Assembly (NCBI GenBank): GCA_036000965.1
Contig: DASYUT010000265.1
Coordinates: 24,555-88,554, forward strand
Length of the DNA stretch: 64,000 nucleotides
Source: Actinomycetes bacterium
Lineage (GTDB): Bacteria; Actinomycetota; CALGFH01
Reading direction: 5' to 3'
Shown: positions 11,122 to 28,449 of the stretch, in pieces
How the letters are laid out: each line of letters begins with the position of its first letter
How positions within the stretch are numbered: position 1 is the first letter of the stretch
Made by a program: the position numbers and the translations under genes
Notes under the pieces: generated by a model
The model's input: the letters and a program-made list of their open reading frames with translations, nothing else
Told to the model about the DNA's origin: nothing
Database searches by the model: none

Positions 11122-11127
11122 CCCCGC

Positions 11128-13898: not shown

Positions 13899-14759
13899 AT
13901 GGCCAGCGAGCGAGTCCCCCGGCGAGTGATCGACGGCCATAGCCACATCGGAGAGATGGCGGCGTGGCGCTTCTACGACCTGAAGGAGCCGGTCAAGCCC
14001 ACGGTCTACGAGTTCGCCACCACCGGGGACTACATGGCCCACCTGGACCGTCTCGGCGTCGAGCGGGCACTGGTGATCTCCAACTACGGGATCCCCCAGC
14101 AGGAGCAGCCGTTCTCCCTGAACCCGCTCGTGCTCGACTCGGTGCAGGCCTCTGACCGGCTCTGCGGTGCGCTCTGGGTCTCGTTCCTGCCGCAGAACAG
14201 GGAGCGGACCCTCGAGGCGCTGAAGCACGCCGGCGAGGCGCGCGTCGTCGCCCTCAAGACGACCTTCCTGCTCGGCGGCAACCCGAACCCGGAGACCTGG
14301 GACGAGGAGACGGCCGCGCTGGCCGAGGCCTGCTTCGCCGCCGCCGAAGAGCACGACCTGGTGTTCCACTTCCACACCAGCCCCGGCGGCGCCTCGGACA
14401 TCAGCAACTTCATCCCGCTGGTCGAGCGGTACGGCAGGCGGGTGAAGCTCTACCTCGTCCACTTCGGCGGCGGCGTCAGCGGGCACATCCGGCTGGTGCC
14501 GCGGTTCCTGGACTGGGTCGAGGAGGGGTACAAGGTCTACACCGACACCACGTGGTGCATCGGCTTCGGCCCCCGCTGGCTGCTCAGCGAGATCGAGCGC
14601 CGCGACGTCGGGCACGACCGGGTGATCTTCGCCTCCGACGAGCCGTGGAGCGACTTCTGGGGCGAGTACTGGAAGATCGCCGGCGCCCGCGCCAGCTCGG
14701 AGCTGAAGGAGCGGGTCTTCCACCAGAACTTCGAGGACCTGTATGGGCACCGGTGGTGA
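13899..14759 (+). CDS. Amidohydrolase family 2 (TIM-barrel metal-dependent hydrolase)
   Basis: VIDGHSHIG at the N-terminus, an HFH motif and a C-terminal acidic residue pattern. GAGAGGTGGG precedes the ATG at 13899. Confidence 0.75.
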   Translation: MASERVPRRVIDGHSHIGEMAAWRFYDLKEPVKPTVYEFATTGDYMAHLDRLGVERALVISNYGIPQQEQPFSLNPLVLDSVQASDRLCGALWVSFLPQNRERTLEALKHAGEARVVALKTTFLLGGNPNPETWDEETAALAEACFAAAEEHDLVFHFHTSPGGASDISNFIPLVERYGRRVKLYLVHFGGGVSGHIRLVPRFLDWVEEGYKVYTDTTWCIGFGPRWLLSEIERRDVGHDRVIFASDEPWSDFWGEYWKIAGARASSELKERVFHQNFEDLYGHRW

Positions 14760-15918
14760 CGCCCGGCCGGACCGCCTGGAGCGCGCGAGGCCCGTGGTGA
14801 CGCCGGAGCTCGGCCGCGTGATCACCGAGCTGCAGAGCGAGGGCTTGCGGATCGAGCAGCCGGTGGAGGCCCGGCGGGGCGGCGCCGGGCCCTCCGACGC
14901 CGGGATGATCTGGGTCGAGGGCATCCCGGTGACCGTCCCCGTGAGTGCCGACTACGTCGCCGGCTCCCCGTTCGTGCTGCGCCGGGAGGACCAGGGCTGG
15001 GGGATCTACCGCCGCGGGCAGCGGGTCGCCTCCGCCGACCCGCTCGAGCGGCCCCGCTTCTACGACCTCAGCACCGCCGACGGCATCCCGTACTGGAAGA
15101 TCGCACTGCTCCACCTCGACTCGCTGGCCAGCACCGTGCTGCAGACCTGCGCCTACTGGGGCACCGACGACCAGTGCCACTTCTGCGGCATCGAGCTGTC
15201 GCTCGAGGCCGGTCGGACGATCGCGGTGAAGCGCCCGGAGCAGCTCGCCGAGGTCGCCGTGGCCGCCAAGGCGCTCGACGGCGTGGTCGACGTGACCCTC
15301 ACGACCGGCAGCACCCACGGCCCCGACCGGGGCGCGCGGTACCTGGGCCGCTGTGCTCACGCGGTCAAGCAGGCGAGCGGGCTGCCCGTCGAGGGGCAGT
15401 TCGAGCCGCCCGCCGACCTCGGCGTCCTGGACGAGGTCCACGAAGCGGGCCTGGACTCGGTCGGCATGCACGTGGAGTCGTTCGACCCGCAGGTGCTGGC
15501 CCGGATCGCGCCGGCCAAGGCCCGCACCGGCATCGACGGGTACTTCCGGGCCTGGGAGCGGGCGGTCGAGGTGTTCGGCGCAGGCCAGGTCTCGACCTAC
15601 GTGATCCTCGGCATGGGCGAGGACCCCGGGGTGACCGTCGAGGGCTGCCGGCGGGCCATCGACATGGGCGTCTACCCGTTCGTCGTGCCGCTCCGGCCCG
15701 TGCCAGGCAGCCTCATGGAGCACTGCCGGCCCCCCACCGCCGACGACATGGACGCCGTGTACCGCCAGGTGGCCCCCTACCTGGTGGCCCGGGGGGTGGC
15801 GTCGTGGGACGTCCGCGCCGGCTGCGCCCGTTGCCAGGCGTGCTCGGCCATCTCCATCCTGGAGCGGGACCTTGCCAGCGACCAGCGCACCCATCTCCCC
15901 ATTCTCGACGTGCGCTGA
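14743..15918 (+). CDS. Putative radical-SAM-like protein with a non-canonical CX9CX2C cysteine motif (resembles the Nit1C/MSMEG_0568-cluster radical SAM)
   Basis: The cluster CAYWGTDDQCHFCG sits in a region consistent with a SAM-radical core. The ATG overlaps the amidohydrolase stop, with GAGGA 6 nt upstream. Confidence 0.5.
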   Translation: MGTGGDARPDRLERARPVVTPELGRVITELQSEGLRIEQPVEARRGGAGPSDAGMIWVEGIPVTVPVSADYVAGSPFVLRREDQGWGIYRRGQRVASADPLERPRFYDLSTADGIPYWKIALLHLDSLASTVLQTCAYWGTDDQCHFCGIELSLEAGRTIAVKRPEQLAEVAVAAKALDGVVDVTLTTGSTHGPDRGARYLGRCAHAVKQASGLPVEGQFEPPADLGVLDEVHEAGLDSVGMHVESFDPQVLARIAPAKARTGIDGYFRAWERAVEVFGAGQVSTYVILGMGEDPGVTVEGCRRAIDMGVYPFVVPLRPVPGSLMEHCRPPTADDMDAVYRQVAPYLVARGVASWDVRAGCARCQACSAISILERDLASDQRTHLPILDVR

Positions 15919-16399
15919 CCTCGAGGCGGCCGTCGGCGCGGACGCGACGGTCGGCTGCCGCCTGGTCGCCACGACCGCCGAGCGCGAGCTGCACCTGCGC
16001 ATCCGGGCGGAGGTCTTCGTCAACGAGCAAGGCCTGTTCGCCGTGACCGACCGGGACGCCCACGACGACGACCCGGGCACGCTGCACGTACTCGGGCTGT
16101 GCGGCCCCGTGGCCGCCGGCGCCGTGCGCCTGTACCCGCTGGACGAGCCGGGGCGCTGGAAGGGCGACCGCCTGGCCGTGCTGCCCGCGCTCCGCAAGCA
16201 CGGCCTCGGGGCGCCGCTGGTGCGGTTCGCGGTGCGCACGGCCGGCGAGCGGGGTGGCCGGGAGATGCTCGCCCACGTGCAGCTCCGCAACGTCGCCTTC
16301 TTCGAGCAGCTCGGCTGGCACCGGCTCGGCGAGCCGGCCGACTACTGCGGCCGGCCGCACCAGCGCATGCGCATCGGCCTGCGACCGCCCCGCACCTGA
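15872..16399 (+). CDS. GNAT family N-acetyltransferase
   Basis: The acetyl-CoA-binding region VRLYPLDEPGRWKGDRLAVLPALRKHGLGAPLV...NVAFFEQLGW fits GNAT. The probable TTG start at 15872 has GGAG upstream. Confidence 0.6.
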   Translation: MPATSAPISPFSTCADLEAAVGADATVGCRLVATTAERELHLRIRAEVFVNEQGLFAVTDRDAHDDDPGTLHVLGLCGPVAAGAVRLYPLDEPGRWKGDRLAVLPALRKHGLGAPLVRFAVRTAGERGGREMLAHVQLRNVAFFEQLGWHRLGEPADYCGRPHQRMRIGLRPPRT

Positions 16400-16442
16400 G
16401 CTGGAGGCGGCCCGGCCCGCACCTGAGCGGGAGGCGGCCCGG

Positions 16443-17417
16443 TCAGCGCGGCACCCGGGCCCGGGTTCCGAGGCCCGTCACCGTCTCGCGGTGCAGGTCC
16501 AGGACGAGTGCCTCCGCCCCGCCGAGGCGAGCCCGCAGCGCCCCCGAGCCGTCCAGGACGGCGACCGGCTCGCAGGCGAGGCCACGGTCGAGGAACGGCG
16601 CCCGGCAGGCGTCCACCTTGCCGGGCGGCGCGCAGAGCAGGAACGCGAAGGCTGGGAAGGCGACGAGCCAGCGGGCCAGGGACACCCCGGCCGGGCGGGG
16701 CAGGGCGTCCAGGTCGACGGTGGCGCCCAGCCTGCCGTACTCGAGCAGCATCGCAAGCGAGCCGAGCAGCCCCGCCATGCTGACGTCCTTGGCCGCCACG
16801 CAGGCACCCGACTCGGCCACGCGGGGCAGCAGGCGGACGTCGTCGGCGACGGCGGCGCCGCGCTGCGGCAGCGACGCGAAGAACGGGAAGTCCTCCCGCA
16901 TCGTCCCGTCCAGGCAGCAGGCGACCAGCAGGGTCTGGCCGGGGGCGGCCGCGCGCACCGACAGCACGCGTGCCGCCCGGCCGAGGCCGAACGCCGAGAT
17001 CCCCGGCGGGCCGTCCCGGATCGTGAGGTGGCCCCCCACCACGGGCACCCGGTACAGCTCGGACGCGTGCCGCATGCCCTCCAGGGCGCGCCGGGCGAGC
17101 GGCTCGGAGGCGACCACGGTGTCCACGATCGCCAGCGGCCAGGCCCCCATGGCGGCCAGGTCGTTCACGTTGGTGAGCACCGCGGCGACGCCGGCGGCGA
17201 ACGGGTCGGCCTCCACGAAGCGGGTCAGGAGCGCCTCGCCTCCGACCACCAGCGAGCAGGCTCCGTCGCTGACGACGGCCCCGTCGTCACCCGGCCCGCT
17301 GCGCCAGTCCGTGGGCCCGAGCACCTCGGTCACCAGCCCCAGCGGGGACTTGCCGCGCAGGCCGGCGTGCGCGCGGACCCCGTTCACGACCTCCTCGAGC
17401 AGCGCCGCCGCTCCCAT
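16443..17417 (-). CDS. AIR synthase-related (PurM-like superfamily) protein
   Basis: PurM-like motifs DDGAVV, NVNDLAAMGAWPL and VVGGHLT. ATG at 17417 with GGGGAGGAG 6 nt upstream. Confidence 0.7.
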   Translation of the reverse strand: MGAAALLEEVVNGVRAHAGLRGKSPLGLVTEVLGPTDWRSGPGDDGAVVSDGACSLVVGGEALLTRFVEADPFAAGVAAVLTNVNDLAAMGAWPLAIVDTVVASEPLARRALEGMRHASELYRVPVVGGHLTIRDGPPGISAFGLGRAARVLSVRAAAPGQTLLVACCLDGTMREDFPFFASLPQRGAAVADDVRLLPRVAESGACVAAKDVSMAGLLGSLAMLLEYGRLGATVDLDALPRPAGVSLARWLVAFPAFAFLLCAPPGKVDACRAPFLDRGLACEPVAVLDGSGALRARLGGAEALVLDLHRETVTGLGTRARVPR

Positions 17418-17418
17418 C

Positions 17419-17506
17419 CCTGCTCCTCCCCGGCGTGCGCGCACGCCTCTTGAGGAAGATCCCATGACCGTCTTGAGGAAGATCACATGCCCGTTTACTA
17501 TACGAA
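17419..17506. promoter_or_regulatory. Divergent promoter region with a 16-bp perfect palindrome and a 23-bp direct repeat
   Basis: GGCGTGCGCGCACGCC at 17428-17443. cttgaggaagatcccatgaccgt and cttgaggaagatcacatgcccgt at 17447-17492. The AT-richer stretch tttactatacgaaatg precedes the ComA start. Confidence 0.5.
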
Positions 17507-18301
17507 ATGATGGCCAGCACCGGCTTCCTCGACCTCCCGCCCCGCAGTTCCAAGCCTCGACAGGCGGGGGTCACCCACGTGCTCGACAAGGGCCTCCCCC
17601 TGGCCGAGATGGAGCCGCTCCTGGCCATCCTCGCCGACCACGTCGACCTGTGGAAGCTGGGCTGGGGGACCGCGTACCTCGACCCGACCGTCGGTGACAA
17701 GGTCGCCCTGCTGGCCCGGCACGACGTGCGCGCCTGCGTCGGCGGGACCCTCCTCGAGGTCGCCTGGGCCCAGGGCAAGGCCGAGGCCTGCCTGGCCTGG
17801 GCCTCCGGGCTCGACTTCCCCTGCGTGGAGGTGTCCAACGGCGCGGTCGGCATGCCGCTGGCCGAGAAGCGACGGCTGATCGCCGAGGCCGCCGAGGGCT
17901 TCACGGTCCTGGCCGAGGTCGGCGCGAAGGACCCGAGCGTCCCGGTCTCGCCCTCCGGCTGGGCCGCGGAGATGCTCGGCGACCTCGAGGCCGGGGCGTC
18001 CTGGGCGGTGGCCGAGGGGCGCGAGAGCGGCACCGTCGGCCTGTACCGGCCGGACGGCTCGGTACGGGAGGACGTGGTCGACGCCGTGGTGGGCGCCGTC
18101 GGCCTGCGCCCGCTGCTCTTCGAGGCCCCGGCAAAGCACCAGCAGGCCTGGCTCATCCGCCGCTTCGGCTCCGACGTGAGCCTCGGCAACGTGCCGGCCC
18201 CGGAGGTGCTCGGCCTGGAGACGCTCCGCCTCGGGCTGCGGGCCGACACGATCGAGCTGGCGCGCTCGCGCGGCACGGCCATGAGCGCGGCGGGGCCGTG
18301 A
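17507..18301 (+). CDS. comA: Phosphosulfolactate synthase (ComA) family protein
   Basis: GVTHVLDKG...HVDLWKLGWGTAYL is the ComA family pattern (GWGTS/A). First gene of a tightly coupled operon. Confidence 0.75.
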   Translation: MMASTGFLDLPPRSSKPRQAGVTHVLDKGLPLAEMEPLLAILADHVDLWKLGWGTAYLDPTVGDKVALLARHDVRACVGGTLLEVAWAQGKAEACLAWASGLDFPCVEVSNGAVGMPLAEKRRLIAEAAEGFTVLAEVGAKDPSVPVSPSGWAAEMLGDLEAGASWAVAEGRESGTVGLYRPDGSVREDVVDAVVGAVGLRPLLFEAPAKHQQAWLIRRFGSDVSLGNVPAPEVLGLETLRLGLRADTIELARSRGTAMSAAGP

Positions 18302-19182
18302 GGAACCTCGTCCCCGGCCGCTACCGCGACGTGTCGGTCGCCAGCGTCGACGGCAGCCTCAGCGCCGAGAGCCTCGGGCGCCACTTCCTCGGCCGCGAGG
18401 CCTACCGCCGCACCCGCTACGTGATCGCCCGCCGGGGCCCCGAGGCGGCCCTGGTCCAGGTGACCAAGGCGTCCGAGGTACCGCTGCTCTCGCCGATCGT
18501 CGGCGTCCGGGTGCTCGCCCCACCCGGCGAGTGCGCCGTGGTCGACGCCCCCGAGGTCGACACCGGCGTCCCCTCCCAGCTCGCGCGGGCCGCCCGCGAG
18601 CTGGCCCCCGGCGCCCGCTGCGTGGTCGTGCAGGGGCGCTACCGCCACGTCAGCTTCATCCTCGACCCCGACCCGATCCGGGTCCGCGTGGTCGAGGTCG
18701 TCCCACCGGAGCCGCCGAAGCTGCTGGACCAGGCGCGCCGGGTGCTGGAGATGGCCGAGGACCTCCCCCCGATCGAGCTGCTCCCGGTCCTCACCGACCT
18801 CACCGAGCTGGCCGGGCGGCGGCCCGCCCGGCGCTACCTGCTCCCGTGCCGGGGCTCGGGCATCCGCATCGACGGCGCCGAGACCAGGTTCCTGGACGAG
18901 CGGCCCGCCAGGGAGGAGTGGGTGCTCCTCGGCTGCACCCGCTCCCGCGAGCTGCACGGATGGTTCTACGGAGAGGAGGCCGAGGTGGTGGACATGTGCC
19001 CCCGCCGGCTGGCCGGACCGGCCGGGACCACCCCCGTGCTCACCAAGTGCTGCCTGCTCGAGGAGCACGTCGAGCGCGACGGCGCCCGCGTGACCGTCCC
19101 CTGGGGCGCCTCGCTCGACCTCGTGCGCGAGGGGCTGGCCCGCATCGCGGCCATGGCGGAGCCGGCATGGTCGCCCGCCTGA
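18298..19182 (+). CDS. Hypothetical protein
   Basis: 294-aa ORF whose GTG start overlaps the comA stop (GTGA). No recognisable family. Confidence 0.45.
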   Translation: MRNLVPGRYRDVSVASVDGSLSAESLGRHFLGREAYRRTRYVIARRGPEAALVQVTKASEVPLLSPIVGVRVLAPPGECAVVDAPEVDTGVPSQLARAARELAPGARCVVVQGRYRHVSFILDPDPIRVRVVEVVPPEPPKLLDQARRVLEMAEDLPPIELLPVLTDLTELAGRRPARRYLLPCRGSGIRIDGAETRFLDERPAREEWVLLGCTRSRELHGWFYGEEAEVVDMCPRRLAGPAGTTPVLTKCCLLEEHVERDGARVTVPWGASLDLVREGLARIAAMAEPAWSPA

Positions 19183-20543
19183 GCGACTCCGAGCTGTACG
19201 CCCACCTGTGGGGGACCGGCGAGCTGCGCGCGGTGTTCGAGGAGCGCGCCCGCCTGCAGTCCTGGCTCGACATCCTGGCCGCCCTGGCCCAGGCCCAGGC
19301 CGAGCTTGGCATCATCCCGGCCGAGGCCGCCGCGGCCGTCGCCAGGTCGGCGTCGGTGGACCGGCTCGACCTGGCGTTCGTGGCCGCCGAGACCCGGCGG
19401 ACCTCGCACTCCACGCTCGGGATCATCCGCGGCCTGGAGCGCGTGCTGCCACCCGAGGCGCACGAGTACGTCTACTACGGCGCGACCGTCCAGGACGTCA
19501 CCGACACCTGGACGGCGCTCGCGGTACGCAGGGTCGGCGCGGTCGCCTGGCGCGACCTGCGCCGGATCCGGGCCCACCTGGTCGACCTGGCGGAGCGGCA
19601 CCGCGACACGGTCATGGCCGGGCGCACGCACGGGCAGCCGGGCGCCGCGGTCACGTTCGGGTTCAAGGCCGCCTCCTGGGCCGACGAGGTCCACCGGCAC
19701 GTCGCCCGCCTGCGCGAGGGCGCGTCCCGCTGGCTGGTCGGCCAGCTCGCCGGCGCGGTGGGGACGGTGGCGTTCTTCGGCGACCAGGGGCTCGCCCTGC
19801 GGGCCCGCTTCTGCGCCCGCCTGGGGCTCGCCGACCCGGGCATCTCCTGGCTCACCTCCCGCGACCGCCTGGCCGAGTTCGGCCACCTCCTGGCCATGGT
19901 CACGGCCACCCTGGCCCGGATCGGGACCGAGGTGTACGAGCTGCAGCGGCCCGAGATCGGCGAGCTGCGCGAGCCGGCCGGGCACGAGGCGGTCGGGAGC
20001 ATCACCATGCCCCACAAGCGCAACCCGGAAGGCGCCGAGCACCTGGCCACCCTCGCCCGCCTGGTCAGGGCCCAGTCCGGCGTCCTGACCGAGAGCATGG
20101 TGGCCGAGCACGAGCGCGACGGGCGGGCCTGGAAGGCGGAGTGGCTGGCGTTCCCCGAGGCCTGCCTGCTCGCGGGCGCCGCCCTCGAGCAGGCCGAGCG
20201 GCTGCTGGCCGGGCTCGAGGTGAACACCAGGGCGATGGCGGCCAACCTGGCCGCCGGGCGTGGCTACCTCGCTTCCGAGCAGGTCCTGGCCATGCTGGCG
20301 CCCACGGTCGGCAAGCACCGGGCCCAGGCCCTGCTCCAGGAGGCGCTGCGGGCGGGGTCGGCCCTGGGCCAGCCGCTCGGGGACGCCCTGCTGGCGAGCG
20401 CGGCGCTGCGGCCGCACCTCGACCCCGACGCCCTGCGGCCGCTCCTGGCCGCCCCCGACGCCGGCTCCGCCGCCGCCATGGCCGACGAGGTCGTCCGGCG
20501 GATCCGCGCCGACGGGCAGCGCGAGGCGGGCGGGTGGCCGTGA
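19167..20543 (+). CDS. Aspartase/fumarase-superfamily lyase, adenylosuccinate-lyase-like
   Basis: Signature GSITMPHKRNPEGAEH (GSSxMPxKxNP). The N-terminal region fits the lyase_1 fold. The ATG at 19167 overlaps the upstream gene by 16 nt. Confidence 0.8.
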   Translation: MVARLSDSELYAHLWGTGELRAVFEERARLQSWLDILAALAQAQAELGIIPAEAAAAVARSASVDRLDLAFVAAETRRTSHSTLGIIRGLERVLPPEAHEYVYYGATVQDVTDTWTALAVRRVGAVAWRDLRRIRAHLVDLAERHRDTVMAGRTHGQPGAAVTFGFKAASWADEVHRHVARLREGASRWLVGQLAGAVGTVAFFGDQGLALRARFCARLGLADPGISWLTSRDRLAEFGHLLAMVTATLARIGTEVYELQRPEIGELREPAGHEAVGSITMPHKRNPEGAEHLATLARLVRAQSGVLTESMVAEHERDGRAWKAEWLAFPEACLLAGAALEQAERLLAGLEVNTRAMAANLAAGRGYLASEQVLAMLAPTVGKHRAQALLQEALRAGSALGQPLGDALLASAALRPHLDPDALRPLLAAPDAGSAAAMADEVVRRIRADGQREAGGWP

Positions 20544-21523
20544 ACCCGTCCGGCCGCTTCCGGCTCGCCACGCTCCCGACGCCGCTGGCCCGCGCGGCAC
20601 GGCTCGAGCGGGCGCTGGGCGCCCCGCCGCTGTATGTCAAGCGCGACGACCTCACCGGGTTCGCGCTCGCCGGCAACAAGGCCCGCCAGCTCGAGCTGCT
20701 CGTCGGTGACGCGGTCGGCCGCGGCTGCGACGCGCTCGTCACCGGGGCCGGCCCCGGCTCGAACTTCTGCCAGGCGGCGGCGCTGGCGGCCCGGGTCGCC
20801 GGCCTCGGCTGCGTCCTGGTCATGTACGGCGCCGAGCCGGCCTCGCCCCATCCCAACCTCGCGCTCGCCCGCGCCTCCGGGGCCGAGATCCGCTTCACCG
20901 GCCGCCCGGAGCGCGAGTCCGTCGACCCGGTCCTGGACGAGGCGGCGGCCGAGCTCGAGGCCGAGGGACGCCGGCCGTACCTGGTCCCCCGCGGCGGGTC
21001 CAGCGGTGTCGGCGCGGCCGGCTACGCCCTGGCCGCCACCGAGCTCGCCGCCCAGCTCGACGCCGAGCGGGTCGCGCCAGAGCTGGTCCTGGTCGCCGCC
21101 GGCTCCGGCAGCACCCAGGCCGGCCTGGTCGCCGGCACGGTGGCCGGGGGCCACCCCTGGCGGGTGGCGGGCGCGTCGGTCAGCCGCCCGGTGGCCGAGT
21201 GCGCCGACCAGGTGCTGCGGCTCGCCCGCGCCGCCGCGGCACTCCTCGGCCAGCCGGCCGCGGAGGCCCGGCACGTCGAGGTGTGGGACGCCCGCGGTCC
21301 CGGCTACGGGATCCCCTCCCCGGAAGGCGAGCGGGCCGCCCGGGTGGCCGCCGACACCGAAGGCCTCCTGCTGGACCCGGTGTTCACGGCCAAGGCGCTC
21401 GCCCTCCTGCCCCGTCTCGTGCACGACGGCGTCCGCGGTCCGGTCGTCTTCTGGCACACCGGCGGGACTCCCGGTGCGCTCGCGCACCTGACACGAGGAG
21501 GTGGGCGGTGCGGCAACCGGTGA
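20540..21523 (+). CDS. PLP-dependent enzyme of the ACC deaminase / D-cysteine desulfhydrase family
   Basis: LYVKRDDLTGFALAGNKARQLELL matches the KRDDL...GGNKxRKLE motif. Glycine-rich PLP loop. The GTG start overlaps the upstream stop (GTGA). Confidence 0.8.
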   Translation: MNPSGRFRLATLPTPLARAARLERALGAPPLYVKRDDLTGFALAGNKARQLELLVGDAVGRGCDALVTGAGPGSNFCQAAALAARVAGLGCVLVMYGAEPASPHPNLALARASGAEIRFTGRPERESVDPVLDEAAAELEAEGRRPYLVPRGGSSGVGAAGYALAATELAAQLDAERVAPELVLVAAGSGSTQAGLVAGTVAGGHPWRVAGASVSRPVAECADQVLRLARAAAALLGQPAAEARHVEVWDARGPGYGIPSPEGERAARVAADTEGLLLDPVFTAKALALLPRLVHDGVRGPVVFWHTGGTPGALAHLTRGGGRCGNR

Positions 21524-23007
21524 GCAGGGGGCTGGGGCCGGCGGCGGAGGCGCCCGCCCCGGAGCTGGTCGAGGCCGGCTTCGCCCTCGAGGTGGCCGAC
21601 GCGCCGCTGCTCCACCACGGGCTGAACCTGGCCGACATGGCGCACGTCCTGGACCTGCGCGCCCGCCGGGTGATGCCGGAGGAGCCGGCCCGCCGGCTGC
21701 TCCGGCTCCTGCTCGTCGCCCACCAGACGCCGGCCGCCGAGTTCCCCTACGACCCGGTCCACGGCGAGGTCTACAACTGCCGCGAGCGGTTCTTCGTCGA
21801 GCGGCTCGGCGACGACGCCGGCTGGCTGCACGCCGGGCGGCCCCGGCGCGAGGCCGGCCGGGTGGCGCTCCGGCTGCTCCTGCGGGTCCTCGTGGCCGAG
21901 CTGGTGTCGGACACGGCCGCGTTCGCCCGCGCGGTGGCCGGGCAGGCCGGCGAGCACGCCGAGACCCTCATGCCCGACCAGACCTACCTGCAGCAGGCGC
22001 AGCCGTCCACGTTCGGCCACTACGTGCTCGCCTTCGCCTACCCCGCCCTGCGCGACGCCGAGCGCCTGCTGCAGGGACTCGACTGGGTCGACCGCAGCCC
22101 GGCCGGCGCGGGCTGCGTCAACGGCAGCCGGCTGCTGGCCGACCGGACCCGGCCGGCCGACCTGCTCGGCTTCCCCGCCGTCATCGAGCACACCCGCGAC
22201 GCGATGTGGCAGACCGACGGCCTCGTCGACTTCCTGGCCACGTCGGCCAGCCTCGTCACCAACCAGAGCAAGCTGGCCGAGGACCTCGAGATCTGGGACA
22301 GCCAGGAGTTCGACTTCGTCGACCTGGCCGGCCCCTACACCCGGGCCAGCGTGCTCATGCCGCAGAAGCGCAACCCGTACGCGCTGTCCATCGTCCGGGG
22401 CGCGGCCGGGATCCTCATCGGGCGCCTCTCCGGGTTCCTGGCTGTGGTCAAGACGCCGTCGGCACGCAGCGACAACCTGATCTTCGCCTACGGGGAGGTG
22501 CCGCGCTCCCTCGAGCTGGCCGGCAGGATCACCCGCCTGACGACCGGCGTGGTGGCGAGCCTCACCGTGAACCGCGAGCGGATGCGGGAGGTGCTCCTGT
22601 CCGGCTTCTGCCAGGCCACCGACCTGGCCGAGTTCGTCATGCAGGCGTGCGGGGTCGACTACCGCACAGCCTACCTGGTGGTCGGCAGGGCGGTCCGCCA
22701 GGCCAGCCGGCAGGGGCTGCGCGGGATCGACCTGACCGGCGAGCTGCTCGACGCGGCGGCGCGCGAGCAGATCGGCCGGCCGCTCGGGCTCACCGGTCGG
22801 GACCTCGCCGAGGTCCTCGACCCGCGGGCGATCGTGCTGACCCGGCTGGCCCCCGGCGGCGCCGCACCGGAGGTCGTGCGGGGCATGGCCCGCTCCTGCA
22901 CCGAGGCCGCCGACCGGCTCCTCGCCGTGGCCGCCGGGCACGCCGAGCGCTTCCGCCTGGCCGAGGAAGCCCTGCTCAACCAGGCGCGGGAGGTGGCTCG
23001 TGGCTAG
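21508..23007 (+). CDS. Aspartase/fumarase-superfamily lyase, argininosuccinate-lyase-like
   Basis: SVLMPQKRNPYALSIVRG is the ArgH-type signature. GAGGAGG lies 6 nt before the GTG at 21508. Confidence 0.8.
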   Translation: MRQPVSRGLGPAAEAPAPELVEAGFALEVADAPLLHHGLNLADMAHVLDLRARRVMPEEPARRLLRLLLVAHQTPAAEFPYDPVHGEVYNCRERFFVERLGDDAGWLHAGRPRREAGRVALRLLLRVLVAELVSDTAAFARAVAGQAGEHAETLMPDQTYLQQAQPSTFGHYVLAFAYPALRDAERLLQGLDWVDRSPAGAGCVNGSRLLADRTRPADLLGFPAVIEHTRDAMWQTDGLVDFLATSASLVTNQSKLAEDLEIWDSQEFDFVDLAGPYTRASVLMPQKRNPYALSIVRGAAGILIGRLSGFLAVVKTPSARSDNLIFAYGEVPRSLELAGRITRLTTGVVASLTVNRERMREVLLSGFCQATDLAEFVMQACGVDYRTAYLVVGRAVRQASRQGLRGIDLTGELLDAAAREQIGRPLGLTGRDLAEVLDPRAIVLTRLAPGGAAPEVVRGMARSCTEAADRLLAVAAGHAERFRLAEEALLNQAREVARG

Positions 23008-23090
23008 GCGGGTCCGCCACGACGAACTCGAGCTCCGGCTGCCCGCGCAGCCGGTACGCCCCTTCCCAGCGGGCCGTCACCTCCATCACC

Positions 23091-24527
23091 GTGAACGCTA
23101 ACCCCCCGCCCCGGCGCGATCCAGTCCTGCTCCCCGGCGAGGTGCGGGTCGTCAACCTCGGCCTGCCGGTGTTCGGCGACGCGGTCCGGGCCCAGGGGGC
23201 GGCCGCGGTCGACGTCGACTGGCGCATCCCCGCCGGCGGCCACCCGGAGCTGGTCGCCGCCCTGGAGCGGCTCTGCGGGCCCCTCTCGGGCCGGGTGGAG
23301 ACGGCCAACCGCGAGGTGGTCCGCCGGCTCGACGAGGGGACGCCGGCCCTGACCGGGATCGCCCCGGCCGCCGAGGTGGTCCCGGGGGTGGACGCCCGGA
23401 CCGTCCTGCACTGCGGCCCTCCCCTGGACTGGGAGGACTTCTGCGACCCGCTGCGCCGCTCGGTCCGGGCCTCGGTGCTGGCCGAGGGATGGGCGTCCTC
23501 GCCGGAGGATGCCGAGCGGCTGGTGGCCACGGGACGCGTGCGGCTCGAGCCGGCCAACCATCACGCCGCGGTCGTGCCGATGGCGACCACCCTCGGCCCC
23601 TCCGCTCCCGTGTTCGTGGTCGAGAACCACCAGGGCGGGAACCGCGCGTTCTCCGGGCTCAACCAGGGGCCGGGCGCGACGGCCTGGTTCGGGATGGACG
23701 CTCCAGCGGCGGTCGAGCGGCTGGTCTGGCTGCGCGACGTCGCCGCCCCGGTGCTGGGCGCCACGATCGCCGGGACCGGGCCGGTCGAGCTGTTCCCGCT
23801 GGTCGCCCAGGGCCTACAGATGGGCGACGACGTCCACATGCGGACGCAGGCGACCACGAACCTGCTCCTGCGCCACCTGCTCCCGCAGCTCGTGGCGGTC
23901 GACTCCCCGCTCCTGGTCGAGGTGGCCCGGTTCCTGTCAGGCAACCACCTGTTCTTCCTGAACCTGGCCATGGCCGCGGCCAAGGCGGTCGCCGACTGGG
24001 CCGGCCAGGTCGCGGACTCGAGCGTGGTGGTGGGGATGGCCCGCAACGGCACCACGTTCGGCATCCGGCTGGCCGGCACCGACGGCGACGCCTGGTTCGT
24101 CGCCCCCGCCCCGCCGGTCGGCCGGGCGCTCTACTACCCGGGGTTCGGCCCGGAGGTGAGCGCGCCCGACATCGGCGACAGCGCGGTCCTCGAGCTGGTC
24201 GGGCTGGGCGGGCCGGCGGCGGCCGCGTCCCCGGCGGTGGCCGCCTTCCTGGGCGGGACGATGGCCGACGCGGCGGCGGCCACCGAGGCTGCGGACCATG
24301 TCTGCGCCGGCCGGAGCAGCCGCTTCAAGCTCCCGCTGCTCGACTTCCGTGGCGCCCCGATCGGCGTGGACGTGCGCAAGGCGGTGGAGCTCGAGATCAC
24401 CCCGTCGATCAACACCGGCATCCTCCACGCCACCGCAGGGACCGGCCAGGTCGGCGCCGGGATCGCGGAGGCGCCGATCGAGTGCTTCCGCCGGGCGCTG
24501 CTCGCCCTCGACGAGCGGCTGCGGTGA
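23091..24527 (+). CDS. ylbE: YlbE family protein (DUF1116; oxamate carbamoyltransferase subunit AllG-like)
   Basis: Strong collinear similarity to E. coli YlbE, including VFVVENHQGGNRAFSGLNQG and FFLNLAMAAAKA. The start is uncertain (GTG at 23091 or at 23142). Confidence 0.75.
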   Translation: MNANPPPRRDPVLLPGEVRVVNLGLPVFGDAVRAQGAAAVDVDWRIPAGGHPELVAALERLCGPLSGRVETANREVVRRLDEGTPALTGIAPAAEVVPGVDARTVLHCGPPLDWEDFCDPLRRSVRASVLAEGWASSPEDAERLVATGRVRLEPANHHAAVVPMATTLGPSAPVFVVENHQGGNRAFSGLNQGPGATAWFGMDAPAAVERLVWLRDVAAPVLGATIAGTGPVELFPLVAQGLQMGDDVHMRTQATTNLLLRHLLPQLVAVDSPLLVEVARFLSGNHLFFLNLAMAAAKAVADWAGQVADSSVVVGMARNGTTFGIRLAGTDGDAWFVAPAPPVGRALYYPGFGPEVSAPDIGDSAVLELVGLGGPAAAASPAVAAFLGGTMADAAAATEAADHVCAGRSSRFKLPLLDFRGAPIGVDVRKAVELEITPSINTGILHATAGTGQVGAGIAEAPIECFRRALLALDERLR

Positions 24528-24535
24528 CCAGGGCG

Positions 24536-24675
24536 GGCGCACCGGGAGCCCTGGCCCGGCTGGTGGGCGCGCCAGGCCGCACCGCAGGCGCACCGGGAGC
24601 CGCACCTGGGAGGGAGGTGCGCCGCTGCGCAGGCTGGGCGTACCAGGAGCCGCACGTGGGGAGGCGGGTGCGCCG
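24536..24675. repeat. Direct repeats (gcgcaccgggagcc...gggaggNggtgcgccg) x3 between ylbE and ylbF
   Basis: Copies at 24536, 24589 and 24638, each containing a GGGAGG-like element. Confidence 0.5.
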
Positions 24676-25446
24676 GTGAGGGCCCTCCTGGCCGGCGCGG
24701 CGGCGGCCCGCGCCCTGGCTCCCCGGGGGGACGGGGTGGTCGTGGCCTGGTTCCCGAAGGCGACCTACGTCCGGATGCCGGGAGGGCTCCTGGCCCTGAC
24801 CGCCCCGGCCGTGCCCCCAGGACCGCTGCACATGGTCCTCGACGCGCCGCTGGCGGCACGGCCGGGAGCGCCGGTGACCCGGTCGGGGAACCGGCTCCTG
24901 GTGGGCCCGGCCTGCGTCGAGCTGCACGGCGTCCGGACGTGGGCCGGGCCGCTGCCAAGCCCCGTTGAGGTGCGCCGCAGCGCCGGGCTGGTGATCGAGG
25001 CGGCGTCGGGGACGGCGGCCGGTTCGGCCCTGCTCGCCCACCCGTACCGGGAGCCGGCCCTGCACGCGCTCGAGCGCCTGCGCGCGGAAGACCTGGCCGG
25101 GGCGGTCGGGCTGCTTGCCGGCCTCGGGCCCGGGCTCACCCCGGCGGGCGACGACGCCCTGGCCGGCATGCTGCTGGCCCGGCGGGCGCTCGACGGCCCT
25201 GGCGCCGAGGCCCGGCTCCGGTCGGCGCTCAGGGCCGCCAGGACCAGCGCGTTGAGCCTGGCGTTCCTTGGCTGCGCCGCCGCCGGGCAGTCCATCGACC
25301 CGGTGCACCAGCTCCTCGGGGCCGCCGCGCGGCGGGACCCCGGGACGGCGGTGACGGCGGCCAGGGCCCTCGCAGAAGTCGGCGCCTCGTCGGGCGCCGA
25401 CTTCTGCTTCGGGCTGCTGGCCGTCCTGCCGGCCGGCGCTGGGTAG
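24676..25446 (+). CDS. ylbF: YlbF family protein (DUF2877; AllH-like)
   Basis: GLGPGLTPAGDDALAGMLLA matches the DUF2877 GxGxGLTPxGDD motif. GTG at 24676. Confidence 0.6.
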   Translation: MRALLAGAAAARALAPRGDGVVVAWFPKATYVRMPGGLLALTAPAVPPGPLHMVLDAPLAARPGAPVTRSGNRLLVGPACVELHGVRTWAGPLPSPVEVRRSAGLVIEAASGTAAGSALLAHPYREPALHALERLRAEDLAGAVGLLAGLGPGLTPAGDDALAGMLLARRALDGPGAEARLRSALRAARTSALSLAFLGCAAAGQSIDPVHQLLGAAARRDPGTAVTAARALAEVGASSGADFCFGLLAVLPAGAG

Positions 25447-25448
25447 GC

Positions 25449-25937
25449 TCAGACCGTCCAGGTGTTGAGCTGGAAGGCCCCGGCCCGCCAGGCGGCCAGC
25501 GCCGAGTCCAGCACGTCGAGCGGGTTGAACGCCTTCACCCCTTCGATCAGGTCGTCCTCCCGGAACCCGTACAGGGCTCCCATGGCGAAGCGGCAGGCGT
25601 AGACGTGGGCGCCCTCCTTGAGGAGGGTCTTGATCTGGTTGTTGATGGCCAGGTTGCCGGGGAAGCCTTCCTTGCCCACCGACGGGTAGCCACGGGTGGC
25701 CGACGCCATCAGGACGCCCGGCCCGTAGAGGACGACGTGGACGTCGAAGCCCTTGCGGACCAGGCGGGTGGCGGTGAGGAGGTTCACCAGGCCGACCGAG
25801 CCCTCGTAGGGAACGGTGTGCATGAACACGAAGGCCTTCTCGCCCGGGTTCGCCTGGATGTCCTCGAACACCTTCTCCTCGGTGTTGTAGAGGTAGGCCC
25901 CCTCCTCGGCCCGTGGCGTGTCGACGGTCTTTGGCAT
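25449..25937 (-). CDS. DsrE/DsrF-like (sulfur-relay fold) family protein
   Basis: 163-aa protein (AFVFMHTVPYEGSVGLVNLLTATRLVRKGFDVHVVLYGPG) with a conserved Cys. GGAGGAG lies 10 nt upstream of the ATG at 25937. Family assignment is tentative. Confidence 0.5.
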   Translation of the reverse strand: MPKTVDTPRAEEGAYLYNTEEKVFEDIQANPGEKAFVFMHTVPYEGSVGLVNLLTATRLVRKGFDVHVVLYGPGVLMASATRGYPSVGKEGFPGNLAINNQIKTLLKEGAHVYACRFAMGALYGFREDDLIEGVKAFNPLDVLDSALAAWRAGAFQLNTWTV

Positions 25938-25975
25938 GGTGTCCGCTCCTCCTGCTCGGGGTCGGGATGCTCTGG

Positions 25976-26263
25976 CTAGGCGGTGGGCTGGCGGCGGACC
26001 GGCCGCCGGGCCACCCCGCCTGAAGCGCGCGAGGCCTGCCAGCGGCGACGATGGCTGCCGGGGAGTACCTGGATGACGGACCGCCGCAGCCCCCATGGAA
26101 GGCGCCGGTAGACGGGTACGAACACGCGCCGCCAGAAGAAGGGGCCCAGACCCGCTTCCTGCACCGGCCCCGGGCGGTCCAGGTACCGCCGGGCCAGGTC
26201 GGCCTGCGCGCGCTCGAGCAGGTAGCGCTCGGCGTTGGCGCGCAGCCACTGCGAGAAGCTCAC
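25976..26263 (-). CDS. Small hypothetical protein (95 aa)
   Basis: The GTG start has AGGAGG 6 nt upstream, overlapping the stop of the upstream oxidoreductase gene. Confidence 0.35.
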   Translation of the reverse strand: MSFSQWLRANAERYLLERAQADLARRYLDRPGPVQEAGLGPFFWRRVFVPVYRRLPWGLRRSVIQVLPGSHRRRWQASRASGGVARRPVRRQPTA

Positions 26264-26266
26264 CCA

Positions 26267-27601
26267 TCACCTCCTGATTGACGCCAGGCCGTTCTGGGCG
26301 GCCAGGGCGATCGGCTCGTTCAGCGCCCCGATGGGCGGCGAGTAGACGTTCTCCATCCAGGCCAGGTCCTCGAGGGTCACCCCGGTCTTGATGGCCATGG
26401 CCAGGAAGTCGGCCCGCTCCTTGATCCCCTCCTGGCCGACCAGCTGGGCGCCGATCAGCCGCAGGCTGCCCGGCGAGGCCAGCAGCTTCACCCGGAGCTT
26501 CTTCACCCCCGGGTAGTAGCGGGCCCGGGAGATGCCCTCGGCCACGCCCATGACGAACGGGATGCCGAGCGCGGTCGCGGTCGTCTCCCCGAACGAGGCG
26601 CCGCCGATCATCCACTTGCCGGCCACCATCCCCCAGGGCACGTAGACCGGCTGGTAGGTCCGGGTCCCACCGGCGGCGCCGGACCCGGCCACCTTGCCCT
26701 GGGCGTACGCGTGGCTGCCGGACAGCCCCTGGATCGGGATGTTGGTGATCCCGTGGGGCAGCTCCACGCAGTCGCCGGCCGCGAACACGCCCTCCACCGA
26801 CGTGGCCATGCGCTCGTCGACCACGACCCCACCGGTGGAGCCGATCTGGACGCCGGCCCGGCGGGCGAGGGTGTTGTTGGGCTGCTTGTGGGTGCACACC
26901 ACCACGACCTCGGCTGGCAGCTCGCCCTCGGAGGTGGCCACCGCGCGCACCCTCCGGTCGCCCACGAACGCCGTCACCCGGGTGTTGAAGTGCGTCTTCG
27001 CGCCGAGCTCGGCCCACGACTCCTCGACCGGCCGCATGATGTCGGGGTCGGCCGCCTCGGCCAGCGGCCACGGACGCGGGTCGACCAGGTGGGTCTCGAT
27101 GCCGCGATGGGCCAGAGCGGTGACCATCTCGAGGCCGAGCGGCGACGCCTCGACCACGACCGCGACCCGCACGTCGTCGAGGACCCGGTCCCATTCCATG
27201 GCCTGGCGGATGTTCTTGACGTAGTACAGGCCCTCGAGGTCCGACCCTGGGACGCCCGGGTCGGCGTAGTCGAAGCCGGTGGCCAGCACCAGGCGATCGA
27301 AGGGGACGTCGCCCTCGCCCTCGACGGCGACCCGTCTCTGCTCGAGGGCGAGGGCGGTCACCCGGGTCTCGTAGTGGATGTCGATGCCGGCCCGCTCGTA
27401 GGCCTCCTTGCCCTGCAGGAACAGGGACTCGAAGTCGGCGATCTCGCGGCCGTGGACGTAGGGGATGCCGCAGGGGCTGTAGGCGGCGTCCTCGTACTCG
27501 GTGTAGACGGTCACCCGCGCATCCGGGTCGACCTGCTTGGCGCTGCCGGCAGCTCCGATGCCCGCGGCGCCACCCCCCACGATGACGATCTGCGGCGCCA
27601 T
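26267..27601 (-). CDS. FAD-dependent pyridine nucleotide-disulfide oxidoreductase, CoA-disulfide reductase / NADH oxidase family (single-Cys type)
   Basis: N-terminal IVIVGGGAAG, redox Cys in YSPCGIPY, a second dinucleotide fold and a C-terminal dimerisation domain. Confidence 0.8.
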   Translation of the reverse strand: MAPQIVIVGGGAAGIGAAGSAKQVDPDARVTVYTEYEDAAYSPCGIPYVHGREIADFESLFLQGKEAYERAGIDIHYETRVTALALEQRRVAVEGEGDVPFDRLVLATGFDYADPGVPGSDLEGLYYVKNIRQAMEWDRVLDDVRVAVVVEASPLGLEMVTALAHRGIETHLVDPRPWPLAEAADPDIMRPVEESWAELGAKTHFNTRVTAFVGDRRVRAVATSEGELPAEVVVVCTHKQPNNTLARRAGVQIGSTGGVVVDERMATSVEGVFAAGDCVELPHGITNIPIQGLSGSHAYAQGKVAGSGAAGGTRTYQPVYVPWGMVAGKWMIGGASFGETTATALGIPFVMGVAEGISRARYYPGVKKLRVKLLASPGSLRLIGAQLVGQEGIKERADFLAMAIKTGVTLEDLAWMENVYSPPIGALNEPIALAAQNGLASIRR

Positions 27602-27625
27602 CCTCGCCCCCAGGGGTCACCATTT

Positions 27626-27690
27626 CGGCAGCTGGTACATTCGACAGTTGGTACATGTGCGACAGTTGGCACACGTGCGACAGCTAATTC
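27626..27690. promoter_or_regulatory. 18-bp tandem repeats (cgacagttggtacatgtg x~3.5) in the divergent promoter between the oxidoreductase operon and the XRE regulator: candidate operator
   Basis: ggcagctggtacattcga, cagttggtacatgtgcga, cagttggcacacgtgcga, cagctaattcacc. Each carries an ACATGT/ACACGT palindromic core. The region is locally AT-richer. Confidence 0.55.
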
Positions 27691-27693
27691 ACC

Positions 27694-28449
27694 ATGATGA
27701 ACGCAGCATCGCCTATACTACTCGGTGCATCCAGAGCGTCAAGGAGCGAGGTAGCCTTGGGTGGAGAAGACGTGCGGGTGAGCGCCGACGGAGCAGCCGC
27801 CTCGCCGAAGCCGGGCCGGGCCCGTGGAGCCGCGCGGGCCGCCGTCAGGGCGCGCAGGTCGGCGTCGGCCGGGCGGGACGACCAGCTCGGCCAGATCATC
27901 GAGTCGATCGGGCCGAAGGTCCGCCATCTCCGCCAGCTCAAGGGCCTGTCGCTCCAGCAGCTCGGCGAGCGGTCCGACATCTCCGCCGCCGCCATCCACA
28001 AGATCGAGCGCAACGGGATGGTCCCGACCATCACGACGCTCATGAAGCTCGCCGTCGCCCTCAACCGGCCCCTGTCGTACTTCGTGGAGGAGGACACGAC
28101 CGCCGACGGCCCGGTGGTCTTCATTCCCGCCGGCGAGCGCAAGCCGGTCTTCACCTCCAAGGCAGGGCTCGAGCTGCGCAGCATCACCGGCCCGTACGGC
28201 CGGTTCTTCATGGCCGGGGCCGCGGCCAGGGTCCAGCCCCTGGCCGACAGCGGCGAGAAGCCGATGGAGCACCCCGGCGAGGAGCTCGTCTTCCTGCTCG
28301 AGGGTGCGCTCGAGCTCGAGGTCGACGGCGAGACCTACCGGCTCTCCGCGGGCGACTCCCTGCACTTTCGCACCGACCGCCCGCACCGCTGGCGCAACCC
28401 GCGGCAGCAGGAGGCCCGCGCCGTCTGGATGGCGCTGCGCCCCATGTAG
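27694..28449 (+). CDS. XRE-family HTH + cupin-domain transcriptional regulator
   Basis: HTH region IGPKVRHLRQLKGLSLQQLGERSDISAAAIHKIERN. C-terminal cupin region GEELVFLLEGALELEVDGETYRLSAGDSLHF. The start is uncertain because the N-terminal 70 aa are low-complexity. Confidence 0.7.
   Translation: MMNAASPILLGASRASRSEVALGGEDVRVSADGAAASPKPGRARGAARAAVRARRSASAGRDDQLGQIIESIGPKVRHLRQLKGLSLQQLGERSDISAAAIHKIERNGMVPTITTLMKLAVALNRPLSYFVEEDTTADGPVVFIPAGERKPVFTSKAGLELRSITGPYGRFFMAGAAARVQPLADSGEKPMEHPGEELVFLLEGALELEVDGETYRLSAGDSLHFRTDRPHRWRNPRQQEARAVWMALRPM

Follow-up and report, generated by a model that had tools for sequence, protein, structure and literature searches.

What would a bacterium use coenzyme M (CoM) for when its CoM genes are joined to genes for a carbamoyltransferase-like enzyme? 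The question is raised by an operon in a stretch of 64,000 nucleotides from an Actinomycetes bacterium (GenBank assembly GCA_036000965.1, contig DASYUT010000265.1, positions 24,555 to 88,554; hereafter the window, in whose coordinates positions are given). Seven plus-strand genes at 17507-25446 are predicted to encode the bacterial CoM pathway (xcbB-A-D-E-C) and two homologues of Escherichia coli oxamate carbamoyltransferase subunits (AllG and AllH), and they lie inside a gene cluster of the Nit1C/gpr nitrogen-starvation family. To our knowledge, the only established use of CoM in bacteria is as a cofactor in the alkene and epoxide metabolism of a few strains. We consider it probable, on balance, that the operon serves as a module for CoM supply with two AllFGH-type subunits fused to it, within a CoM-linked variant of the Nit1C/gpr cluster whose other enzymes use the CoM.

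The seven-gene unit

Spurious frames are abundant in open reading frame (ORF) lists of the window because its G+C content is about 74%. Genes were called by third-position GC frame profiling, and families were assigned with Pfam and with NCBIfam and its curated cutoffs. The profiling returned seven genes over the same span that an earlier note on this DNA had proposed as one unit:

17507-18301, plus strand: xcbB (ComA), predicted phosphosulfolactate synthase (Pfam ComA 1e-77, 261 bits; E = 3e-48 to the phosphosulfolactate synthase of PDB 1U83)
18298-19182, plus strand: xcbA, predicted [2Fe-2S] reductase of the last CoM step (NCBIfam XcbA 349 bits against a cutoff of 150; Pfam DUF7714)
19167-20543, plus strand: xcbD, predicted adenylosuccinate-lyase-like 3-sulfopropionylcysteine synthase (NCBIfam NF052536 623 bits against a cutoff of 600; PurB 287 bits; Pfam Lyase_1)
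20534-21523, plus strand: xcbE, predicted pyridoxal phosphate (PLP) enzyme of the D-cysteine desulfhydrase/ACC deaminase family (Pfam PALP; best NCBIfam match XcbE, 309 bits)
21520-23007, plus strand: xcbC, predicted argininosuccinate-lyase-like, phosphate-eliminating lyase of phosphosulfolactate (Pfam Lyase_1 and ASL_C2; best NCBIfam match XcbC, 435 bits)
23091-24527, plus strand: allG-like gene (YlbE, DUF1116; Pfam AllG 3e-72, 243 bits; PDB 3CLQ 2e-80)
24676-25446, plus strand: allH-like gene (YlbF, DUF2877; Pfam AllH 5.5e-21, 76 bits)

The chain of overlapping stop and start codons described in that note holds for the first five genes (overlaps of 4, 16, 10 and 4 nt); gaps of 83 nt (xcbC-allG) and 148 nt (allG-allH) separate the last two, and the Pfam matches bear out their reading as ylbE and ylbF. 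Alignment to the homologue in a related locus (L003) places the allH start at GTG 24676. The alternative start at ATG 24298 was rejected, as its first ~125 codons overlap allG, show no coding signal and are missing from homologues. The allG-allH spacer (24528-24675), which is absent in L003, contains imperfect ~50-nt copies that duplicate the ribosome-binding and start region of allH. The xcb genes, allG, allH, fdrA (see below) and the Nit1C-like genes are intact in the window with strong coding signal, and a chance arrangement is excluded because the same arrangement is kept in dozens of genomes.

The predicted coenzyme M pathway

The complete bacterial CoM pathway, with five xcb genes, was worked out in Xanthobacter and published in 2022; XcbA is the [2Fe-2S] protein of the terminal reduction, and the XcbE step returns the nitrogen of cysteine (PMC9457059). 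For each of the five contiguous window proteins (17507-23007), the best family match is the corresponding Xcb family. The gene between comA and the first lyase, which the earlier note correctly placed but left as hypothetical, is xcbA. The same note had called the set CoM-like; its bacterial CoM type stands, and by these matches the first five genes represent the complete, already described pathway rather than a variant merely resembling it.

Conserved residues agree with these assignments. In alignment the conserved family motifs are retained, and the xcbB product is 40% identical to Xanthobacter XcbB. Five cysteines of XcbA, candidate [2Fe-2S] ligands among them, are invariant across the proteins of the window, Xanthobacter, Nocardioides sp. 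JS614, Mycolicibacterium chubuense NBB4 and Methylocystis. Similarly, XcbD has the loop motif GSITMPHKRNPE in common with Xanthobacter and JS614, XcbE keeps the PLP lysine motif GNK, and XcbC keeps RASxxMPQKRNPY as in Xanthobacter. A housekeeping identity of the two lyases as PurB and ArgH, which had been named beforehand as the finding that would speak against the proposal, is ruled out by the family scores: XcbD reaches 623 bits against 287 for PurB, and XcbC 435 bits against 268 for the ArgH family, the latter below the ArgH cutoff of 279.5.

Given this orthology to characterised enzymes, XcbBADEC very probably makes CoM. XcbB would convert sulfite and phosphoenolpyruvate to phosphosulfolactate, from which XcbC would eliminate phosphate to yield sulfoacrylate; XcbD would then add cysteine to form 3-sulfopropionyl-cysteine, the PLP enzyme XcbE would convert this to sulfoethanethioaldehyde, and [2Fe-2S] XcbA would reduce the thioaldehyde to CoM. 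The XcbA family is rare, with 314 representatives at E <= 1e-10 among 1.84 billion proteins, and this rarity suggests a specialised system rather than a housekeeping one.

A divided AllFGH-type module

Oxamate carbamoyltransferase of E. coli consists of FdrA, YlbE and YlbF (AllFGH), as was demonstrated in 2024 (PMC11326118). Window AllG is 40% identical to YlbE, and window AllH is 35% identical to YlbF over the C-terminal 100 aa. The remaining subunit is encoded ~10 kb away, at the position reported in the earlier note and on the minus strand:

11247-12809, minus strand: FdrA/AllF-like subunit (CoA_binding and Ligase_CoA domains; NCBIfam NF004760 387 bits against a cutoff of 433)

Over residues 6-492 this FdrA shares 38% identity with E. 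coli AllF, and it does not have the C-terminal tail of E. coli FdrA; the N-terminal ~55 aa of window AllG are homologous to that very tail (residues 8-61 against FdrA 502-554). The exchange of a segment between FdrA and AllG supports the distant fdrA working with allG, and thus FdrA as the probable partner of window AllG and AllH. A phosphohistidine enzyme of the succinyl-CoA synthetase (SCS) alpha type was also considered for FdrA and rejected, since SGGTL stands where the GHAGA motif is expected (judged by eye from the sequence).

Conservation across genomes

A genome scan seeded with the window's XcbA peptides returned 62 loci, for each of which ±10 kb was inspected; because the seeds were the window's own peptides, the proportion of Nit1C-linked to alkene-linked xcb operons among them is biased. 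Most loci are from Actinomycetota, with others from Dormibacterota, Anaerolineales and a few Proteobacteria, and isolates are represented by Streptomyces chiangmaiensis, Streptosporangium, Pseudonocardia, Planosporangium, Actinomycetospora and Asanoa. The best genome relative in the XcbA scan is a metagenome-assembled genome (78% amino-acid identity), and the exact XcbA protein was found on metagenome contigs only.

The operon proved to be conserved as a unit, the outcome on which the earlier note's proposal depended. In the tblastn mapping, 42 loci had enough flank to be evaluated; allG immediately follows xcbC in 28 of these and is present at any position in 32. At least one Nit1C-type or All gene is present in 53 of the 62 loci, and both kinds in 39. 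Gene order is shuffled in L013, L014, L022, L027, L045, L049, L055 and L056, yet the genes remain together, and the association spans Actinomycetota, Dormibacterota, and Alpha- and Deltaproteobacteria. A simple neighbour-joining tree of concatenated XcbA, XcbB, XcbC and XcbD separates two clades. Every Nit1C-linked locus of actinobacterial or alphaproteobacterial origin falls with the window into clade I (order B-A-D-E-C), in which JS614 is basal; clade II (order A-B-C-D-E) contains Xanthobacter, Rhodocyclaceae, Anaerolineales and the deltaproteobacterial locus L056. The association is present in both xcb clades, because clade II locus L056 carries AllG, FdrA, a GNAT protein, an AIR-synthase-like protein and carbamate kinase.

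Clustering of all ORFs of the loci identified further recurrent genes. Next to fdrA, 17 loci have a carbamate kinase with 39% identity to E. coli AllK; an OsmC gene occurs in 44 loci, at or near the position of a remnant in the window; and DJ-1/PfpI occurs in nine. The nitrile-hydrolysing enzyme differs between groups: alphaproteobacterial versions have a nitrilase, and many actinobacterial versions have a nitrile hydratase, whose Co-type beta and alpha genes directly follow the gene for the nitrogen starvation response protein NitB in at least 14 and at least 11 loci, respectively (for example L018 12872-13926, L011 19379-20643 and 12 other loci). The Nit6803-type nitrilase NitC was found only in L045, L047, L049 and L064, and neither in the window nor in actinobacterial loci.

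The Nit1C-like neighbourhood

The operon sits within a cluster of ~18.5 kb (9886-28449) made up of Nit1C/gpr nitrogen-starvation-family genes, which also holds fdrA and which the earlier note had overlooked. Besides the genes already given, it contains:

9886-11121, minus strand: GT4 glycosyltransferase, MSMEG_0565 family (NCBIfam TIGR04047 380 bits against a cutoff of 260; Pfam Glycos_transf_1)
13095-13763, plus strand: conserved hypothetical protein of 222 aa (no Pfam or NCBIfam match; homologues in a Methylocystis cluster and several loci)
13926-14759, plus strand: Amidohydro_2 metal hydrolase/decarboxylase (Pfam PF04909 5e-18)
14794-15918, plus strand: radical SAM protein, MSMEG_0568/NitD family (NCBIfam TIGR04043 413 bits against a cutoff of 304)
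15872-16399, plus strand, start uncertain: GNAT N-acetyltransferase, MSMEG_0567/Sll0786 (NitE) (NCBIfam TIGR04045 106 bits against a cutoff of 68)
16443-17417, minus strand: AIR-synthase-like protein (PurM superfamily), closest to sll0787/NitF (NCBIfam TIGR04049 246 bits against a cutoff of 321)
17448-17461 and 17471-17484: 14-nt direct repeat TCTTGAGGAAGATC, two exact copies with a 23-nt period, a candidate operator in the divergent promoter region of the AIR-synthase-like gene and xcbB
25449-25937, minus strand: NitB, MSMEG_0572/Sll0783, DsrE-like nitrogen starvation response protein (NCBIfam TIGR04044 208 bits against a cutoff of 110)
25976-26263, minus strand: conserved small protein of 95 aa (no Pfam or NCBIfam match)
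26267-27601, minus strand: pyridine nucleotide-disulfide oxidoreductase of the CoA-disulfide reductase (CoADR)/NADH oxidase/peroxidase class (Pfam; NCBIfam CoADR 246 bits, sub-cutoff)
27772-28449, plus strand: HTH_3 and cupin regulator, PuuR-like (Pfam; NCBIfam PuuR 80 bits, sub-cutoff)

Several of these genes keep fixed places in related loci. The GT4 gene is always paired with fdrA, adjoining it in 16 loci; the AIR-synthase-like gene, divergent from xcbB, adjoins xcbB in 40 of the 62; and the 95-aa gene always lies between the flavoprotein gene and nitB, with tblastn matches at that position in 25 other loci. The 95-aa ORF is not an MSMEG_0570-family protein, an identity ruled out by family and tblastn comparison. 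The Amidohydro_2 gene takes the place of the nitrilase in canonical Nit1C and occurs also in L006, L015, L013 and L061. The 222-aa protein matches, in its N-terminal part, ORFs of 115-118 aa that precede the radical SAM gene in L009 and L011. The second match of the AIR-synthase-like protein is methanogenesis marker 2; a HypE-like self-carbamoylation of this protein is unlikely, as the C-terminal cysteine is absent. The flavoprotein has a single redox cysteine (SPCGIPY) and matches NoxA-3, CoADR and CoA-persulfide reductase structures in PDB at 1e-46 to 6e-58. The regulator gene is divergent from the flavoprotein operon and was found in 25 of the 62 loci. The repeat TCTTGAGGAAGATC has two matches, a number that none of 100 shuffles reached, and it was not found in any related locus.

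Further observations concern the same genes. The radical SAM protein has a variant cysteine motif, C-x9-C-x2-C (CAYWGTDDQCHFC), in place of the canonical CxxxCxxC, which fits its NCBIfam match to a variant radical SAM domain, and it shows weak similarity to LipS2 lipoyl synthase (8e-8). At ~27620-27690, in the gap between the flavoprotein operon and the regulator gene, a CGACAG(T/C)TGG(T/C)ACA-like motif recurs in about four copies, which form a candidate autoregulatory site. At the other edge, an adenylate cyclase-AAA-TPR ORF (7515-10196, plus strand) overlaps the convergent GT4 gene by 310 nt (9886-10196); its tail is probably untranslated, or hides a sequencing error, because the coding signal moves to the GT4 frame at ~9860.

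Elsewhere in the window, a formaldehyde-activating-enzyme (Fae)-like protein is encoded at 50606-51130 on the minus strand (101.5 bits against a cutoff of 118), unusual for an actinomycete and flanked by two class III/mycothiol-type Zn alcohol dehydrogenases and an enolase-superfamily dehydratase. A histidine ammonia-lyase ORF at 42733-44883 (minus strand) has an N-terminal extension matching the C-terminal ~75 residues of agmatinase/formimidoylglutamase, and it may be a fused gene, or a read-through or frame-shifted gene pair.

Gene loss in the window

The window carries a reduced version of the cluster, with two gene remnants:

12806-12946, minus strand: carbamate kinase (AllK-like) remnant of 46 codons, MKQTVVLALGGNALTRADQAGTFEEQQANAMTADEAEGHLRDGQFA and a stop, left by an in-frame internal deletion of ~280 codons
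23007-23090, minus strand: the two ends of an OsmC-family gene, with ~309 nt of L001 (6379-6689) missing

In tblastn, only residues 1-45 and 241-272 of the L007 carbamate kinase match the window, and the stop of the remnant overlaps the fdrA start as GTGA. Collinearity with L001 in blastn is broken at window 23050/23051, corresponding to L001 6379/6689; the 83-nt xcbC-allG spacer is thus a deletion scar, because the OsmC gene is internally deleted there. No nitrilase, nitrile hydratase, intact carbamate kinase or intact OsmC gene was found in the 64-kb window. L001, the closest relative (80% nucleotide identity), is itself without allH.

Comparison with known systems

The reference for the first five genes is xcbABCDE of Xanthobacter autotrophicus Py2, reportedly tied to CoM biosynthesis by Partovi in 2018 and Wu in 2022. 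Both operons hold the same five families and motifs in one contiguous run, at 39-43% identity. The Xanthobacter operon differs in its order (A-B-C-D-E), its clade and its adjacent alkene monooxygenase and epoxide carboxylase genes, whereas the window operon is extended by allG and allH and embedded in Nit1C-like genes. Closer relatives are the plasmid-borne operons of the ethene and vinyl chloride degraders JS614 and NBB4, with the order B-A-D-E-C, 47-55% identity and a place in the same clade; these differ in having adjacent EaCoMT, 2-KPCC-like, SDR and CoA-transferase genes and in being without AllG/H, FdrA and Nit1C genes. In tblastn with Xanthobacter queries, neither EaCoMT nor 2-KPCC was found in the window or within ±10 kb of the Nit1C-linked loci; matches occurred only in L052, L063, L065 and L066.

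Nit1C we take to comprise nitBCDEFGH (Sll0783-0787) and to be the same cluster as gpr of M. smegmatis (MSMEG_0565-0572). The canonical arrangement, on an Acetobacter plasmid, is NitB-nitrilase-rSAM-GNAT-AIRS-GT-MSMEG_0570-MSMEG_0569. NitB, NitD, NitE and the MSMEG_0565 glycosyltransferase of the window all exceed their curated cutoffs; for the AIR-synthase-like protein, NitF is the best family match, at 246 bits under the cutoff of 321. The window differs in being without the nitrilase NitC, for which the cluster is named, NitG (Pnap_2097), the flavin oxidoreductase MSMEG_0569 (NitH) and MSMEG_0570; across the window and the loci, the Acetobacter MSMEG_0569 and MSMEG_0570 proteins matched only L067 in tblastn. 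In their stead the window has the CoADR-like flavoprotein, the 95-aa protein, the Amidohydro_2 protein, the 222-aa protein, xcbBADEC and FdrA/AllG/AllH, and the versions in relatives go beyond canonical Nit1C by carbamate kinase, OsmC and nitrile hydratase as well.

E. coli allFGH-allK (fdrA-ylbE-ylbF-ybcF) resembles the window in its three subunits (35-40% identity), and in relatives a carbamate kinase gene adjoins fdrA; the window module differs in being divided between two operons 10 kb apart, in carrying the FdrA tail on AllG, in its deleted kinase and in its neighbours, which include no allantoin-pathway genes. A close likeness to the whole cluster is on plasmid pSS37A-Re-1 of Methylocystis iwaonis, with xcbBADEC, FdrA, DUF1116, the MSMEG_0565 glycosyltransferase, radical SAM, GNAT, AIR-synthase-like, NitB, the small protein, the flavoprotein, a ~220-aa hypothetical protein and a cupin. 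That locus differs in having kept a Nit6803-type nitrilase, NitG and OsmC, in its undetected AllH and in its xcb genes, which are divergent and not fused to the All gene; RefSeq annotates it gene by gene, and we found no description of the locus. A literature search for work that connects CoM, xcb or phosphosulfolactate to Nit1C, nitrilase, nitrile hydratase or DUF1116 also gave none; it mostly did not cover subscription journals, so that an earlier description is possible, and the earlier note knew of no such system either. The xcb operon is best regarded as a further member of a described CoM pathway, and what appears new is its combination with Nit1C-like and All genes.

Another setting was observed in four Anaerolineales genomes (L054 1511-12862; L046, L048 and L050), where xcb genes lie inside a corrinoid methyltransferase system with three URO-D/MtaA-family proteins, a RACo-type reductive activator, a B12-binding protein, a cobalamin adenosyltransferase and, between xcbB and xcbC, an MtrH-like protein. 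Judged by its gene content, a CoM-dependent methyl-transfer pathway in Chloroflexota is possible. No URO-D or MtrH homologue was found in the 64-kb window.

Possible uses of the coenzyme M

The gene association suggests that the CoM would be used by neighbouring enzymes and not in alkene or epoxide metabolism. Such consumption by neighbours is strengthened because xcb operons elsewhere adjoin CoM consumers, namely epoxide genes (Xanthobacter, L052, JS614 and NBB4) and corrinoid/URO-D methyltransferases. FdrA, AllG and AllH would form a complex like E. coli oxamate carbamoyltransferase and transfer carbamoyl groups to and from phosphate, with a small anion as the other acceptor. If CoM replaced oxamate as that acceptor, the reaction would be S-carbamoyl-CoM + Pi <-> CoM + carbamoyl phosphate; this interconversion is the mechanism that we prefer, though we regard it as speculative and, on the whole, doubtful. 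In the fuller clusters of relatives, nitrilase or nitrile hydratase would supply the C1-N unit, carbamate kinase would convert carbamoyl phosphate to NH3, CO2 and ATP, and OsmC would deal with peroxides. The CoADR-like flavoprotein, with NitB, would hold the CoM thiol/disulfide pool poised, and the cluster as a whole would serve nitrogen scavenging and redox protection when nitrogen is limiting. Such a role has a background in the family: Nit1C has been linked genetically to cyanide assimilation in pseudomonads (PMC7815647), and M. smegmatis gpr is induced by GlnR, more than 100-fold under nitrogen starvation, confers peroxide resistance and raises NADPH/NADP (PMC6039565).

A bolder version, which we consider improbable, makes CoM the carrier thiol of a new C1-N assimilation: cyanide or cyanate would be captured as S-cyano-CoM or S-carbamoyl-CoM, nitrilase or nitrile hydratase would process the cyano form, and SCS-like phosphorolysis by FdrA/AllG/AllH would yield carbamoyl phosphate, from which carbamate kinase would release NH3, CO2 and ATP. 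If true, this would give a function to the 20-year-old Nit1C puzzle and a third biological role to CoM, and it would account for the missing link to alkene oxidation in most of the bacterial xcb operons recovered here.

Several points weigh against the proposed CoM supply module with CoM-using neighbours. The copy in the window is reduced (carbamate kinase and OsmC deleted, no nitrile enzyme, and a closest relative lacking allH), and the full proposed pathway cannot run as written here because the kinase, OsmC and nitrile enzymes are missing. S-carbamoyl-CoM is a hypothetical metabolite. A thiocyanate hydrolase among the cluster-linked nitrile hydratases was ruled out, these being typical Co-type enzymes. 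The cluster is divided into at least five predicted transcription units, and the strict GlnR box (GTnAC-n6-GnAAC) was not found in it, an absence of little weight; the one match in the window is far off and at chance level. The scan was biased to relatives of the window and missed JS614, NBB4 and Xanthobacter. Furthermore, some proteins stay under their NCBIfam cutoffs: FdrA (387 bits against 433), the AIR-synthase-like protein under that of the NitF family (246 against 321), XcbC (435 against 575) and XcbE (309 against 450). For the last two, the scores are no argument against function, because the proteins of the CoM users JS614 and NBB4 score the same or lower (XcbC 378 and 396 bits, XcbE 315 and 328) and also fail; the cutoffs evidently mark the Xanthobacter-type clade only.

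Other explanations put the same genes together differently. CoM, a nitrogen-free thiol, could serve as a redox buffer that replaces or supplements mycothiol under nitrogen limitation, with the flavoprotein as CoM-disulfide reductase, OsmC as CoM-dependent peroxidase, and the All and nitrile enzymes as a separate, co-regulated nitrogen-scavenging module that does not depend on CoM. The redox cysteine motif of the CoADR/Nox/Npx-class flavoprotein agrees with this, as do OsmC in 44 loci, DJ-1/PfpI in nine, the cysteine nitrogen returned by XcbE (PMC9457059) and the peroxide resistance, higher NADPH/NADP and nitrogen-starvation induction of gpr (PMC6039565). However, the canonical gpr phenotype arises without xcb genes, OsmC is deleted in the window, no nitrogen-regulator site was found in the cluster, and both the fusion of allG and allH to the xcb operon and the FdrA domain swap are left unexplained, so that we consider a redox buffer unlikely, if a serious alternative. 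Rather improbable is a larger sulfonated metabolite, in which CoM or an Xcb intermediate would be elaborated by the GT4, GNAT, ATP-dependent AIR-synthase-like and radical SAM proteins and carbamoylated by the All complex, to give a glycosylated thiol or sulfonate by mycothiol/bacillithiol-like logic. The earlier note had suggested a carbamoylated or ligated product, a reasonable guess to which the carbamate kinase next to fdrA in 17 relatives lends indirect support; RefSeq labels Nit1C genes "biosynthetic process", and the GNAT and ATP-using PurM-like enzymes recall the roles of MshD and MshC; the GT4 protein is distantly related to MshA and BshA (94 and 72 bits), though far under cutoff. Transporter, nonribosomal peptide synthetase and tailoring genes are absent; nitrilase or nitrile hydratase with carbamate kinase looks catabolic, and E. 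coli AllFGH acts catabolically.

The two remaining explanations deny the link between CoM and its neighbours. A fortuitous juxtaposition, with CoM made for another purpose beside ordinary oxalurate (ureide) catabolism by allGH/fdrA, would account for the 35-40% identity to E. coli AllFGH and for a nearby carbamate kinase as in allFGHK; it is very improbable given an association kept across phyla and through rearrangements, a neighbourhood without allantoin-pathway genes, and allG directly after xcbC in two-thirds of the evaluable loci. The classical role, CoM for alkene/epoxide or other known CoM-dependent metabolism encoded elsewhere in the genome, could appeal to the same B-A-D-E-C operon in ethene and vinyl chloride degraders; yet EaCoMT and 2-KPCC, adjacent in known users, have no homologue in the window or within ±10 kb of the Nit1C-linked loci, and we give this role hardly any weight.

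Implications

In a scan biased to relatives of the window, most of the xcb operons recovered, from soil Actinomycetota, Dormibacterota and some Proteobacteria, lie in a Nit1C-like cluster and not by epoxide genes. Such a setting points to a use of CoM, not yet described, beyond methanogenesis and alkene oxidation. If so, cultured actinomycetes that do not oxidise alkenes should make CoM; a small thiol may take part in the function of Nit1C/gpr, which has links to cyanide assimilation, peroxide resistance and nitrogen starvation; and AllFGH-type enzymes may take substrates besides oxalurate.

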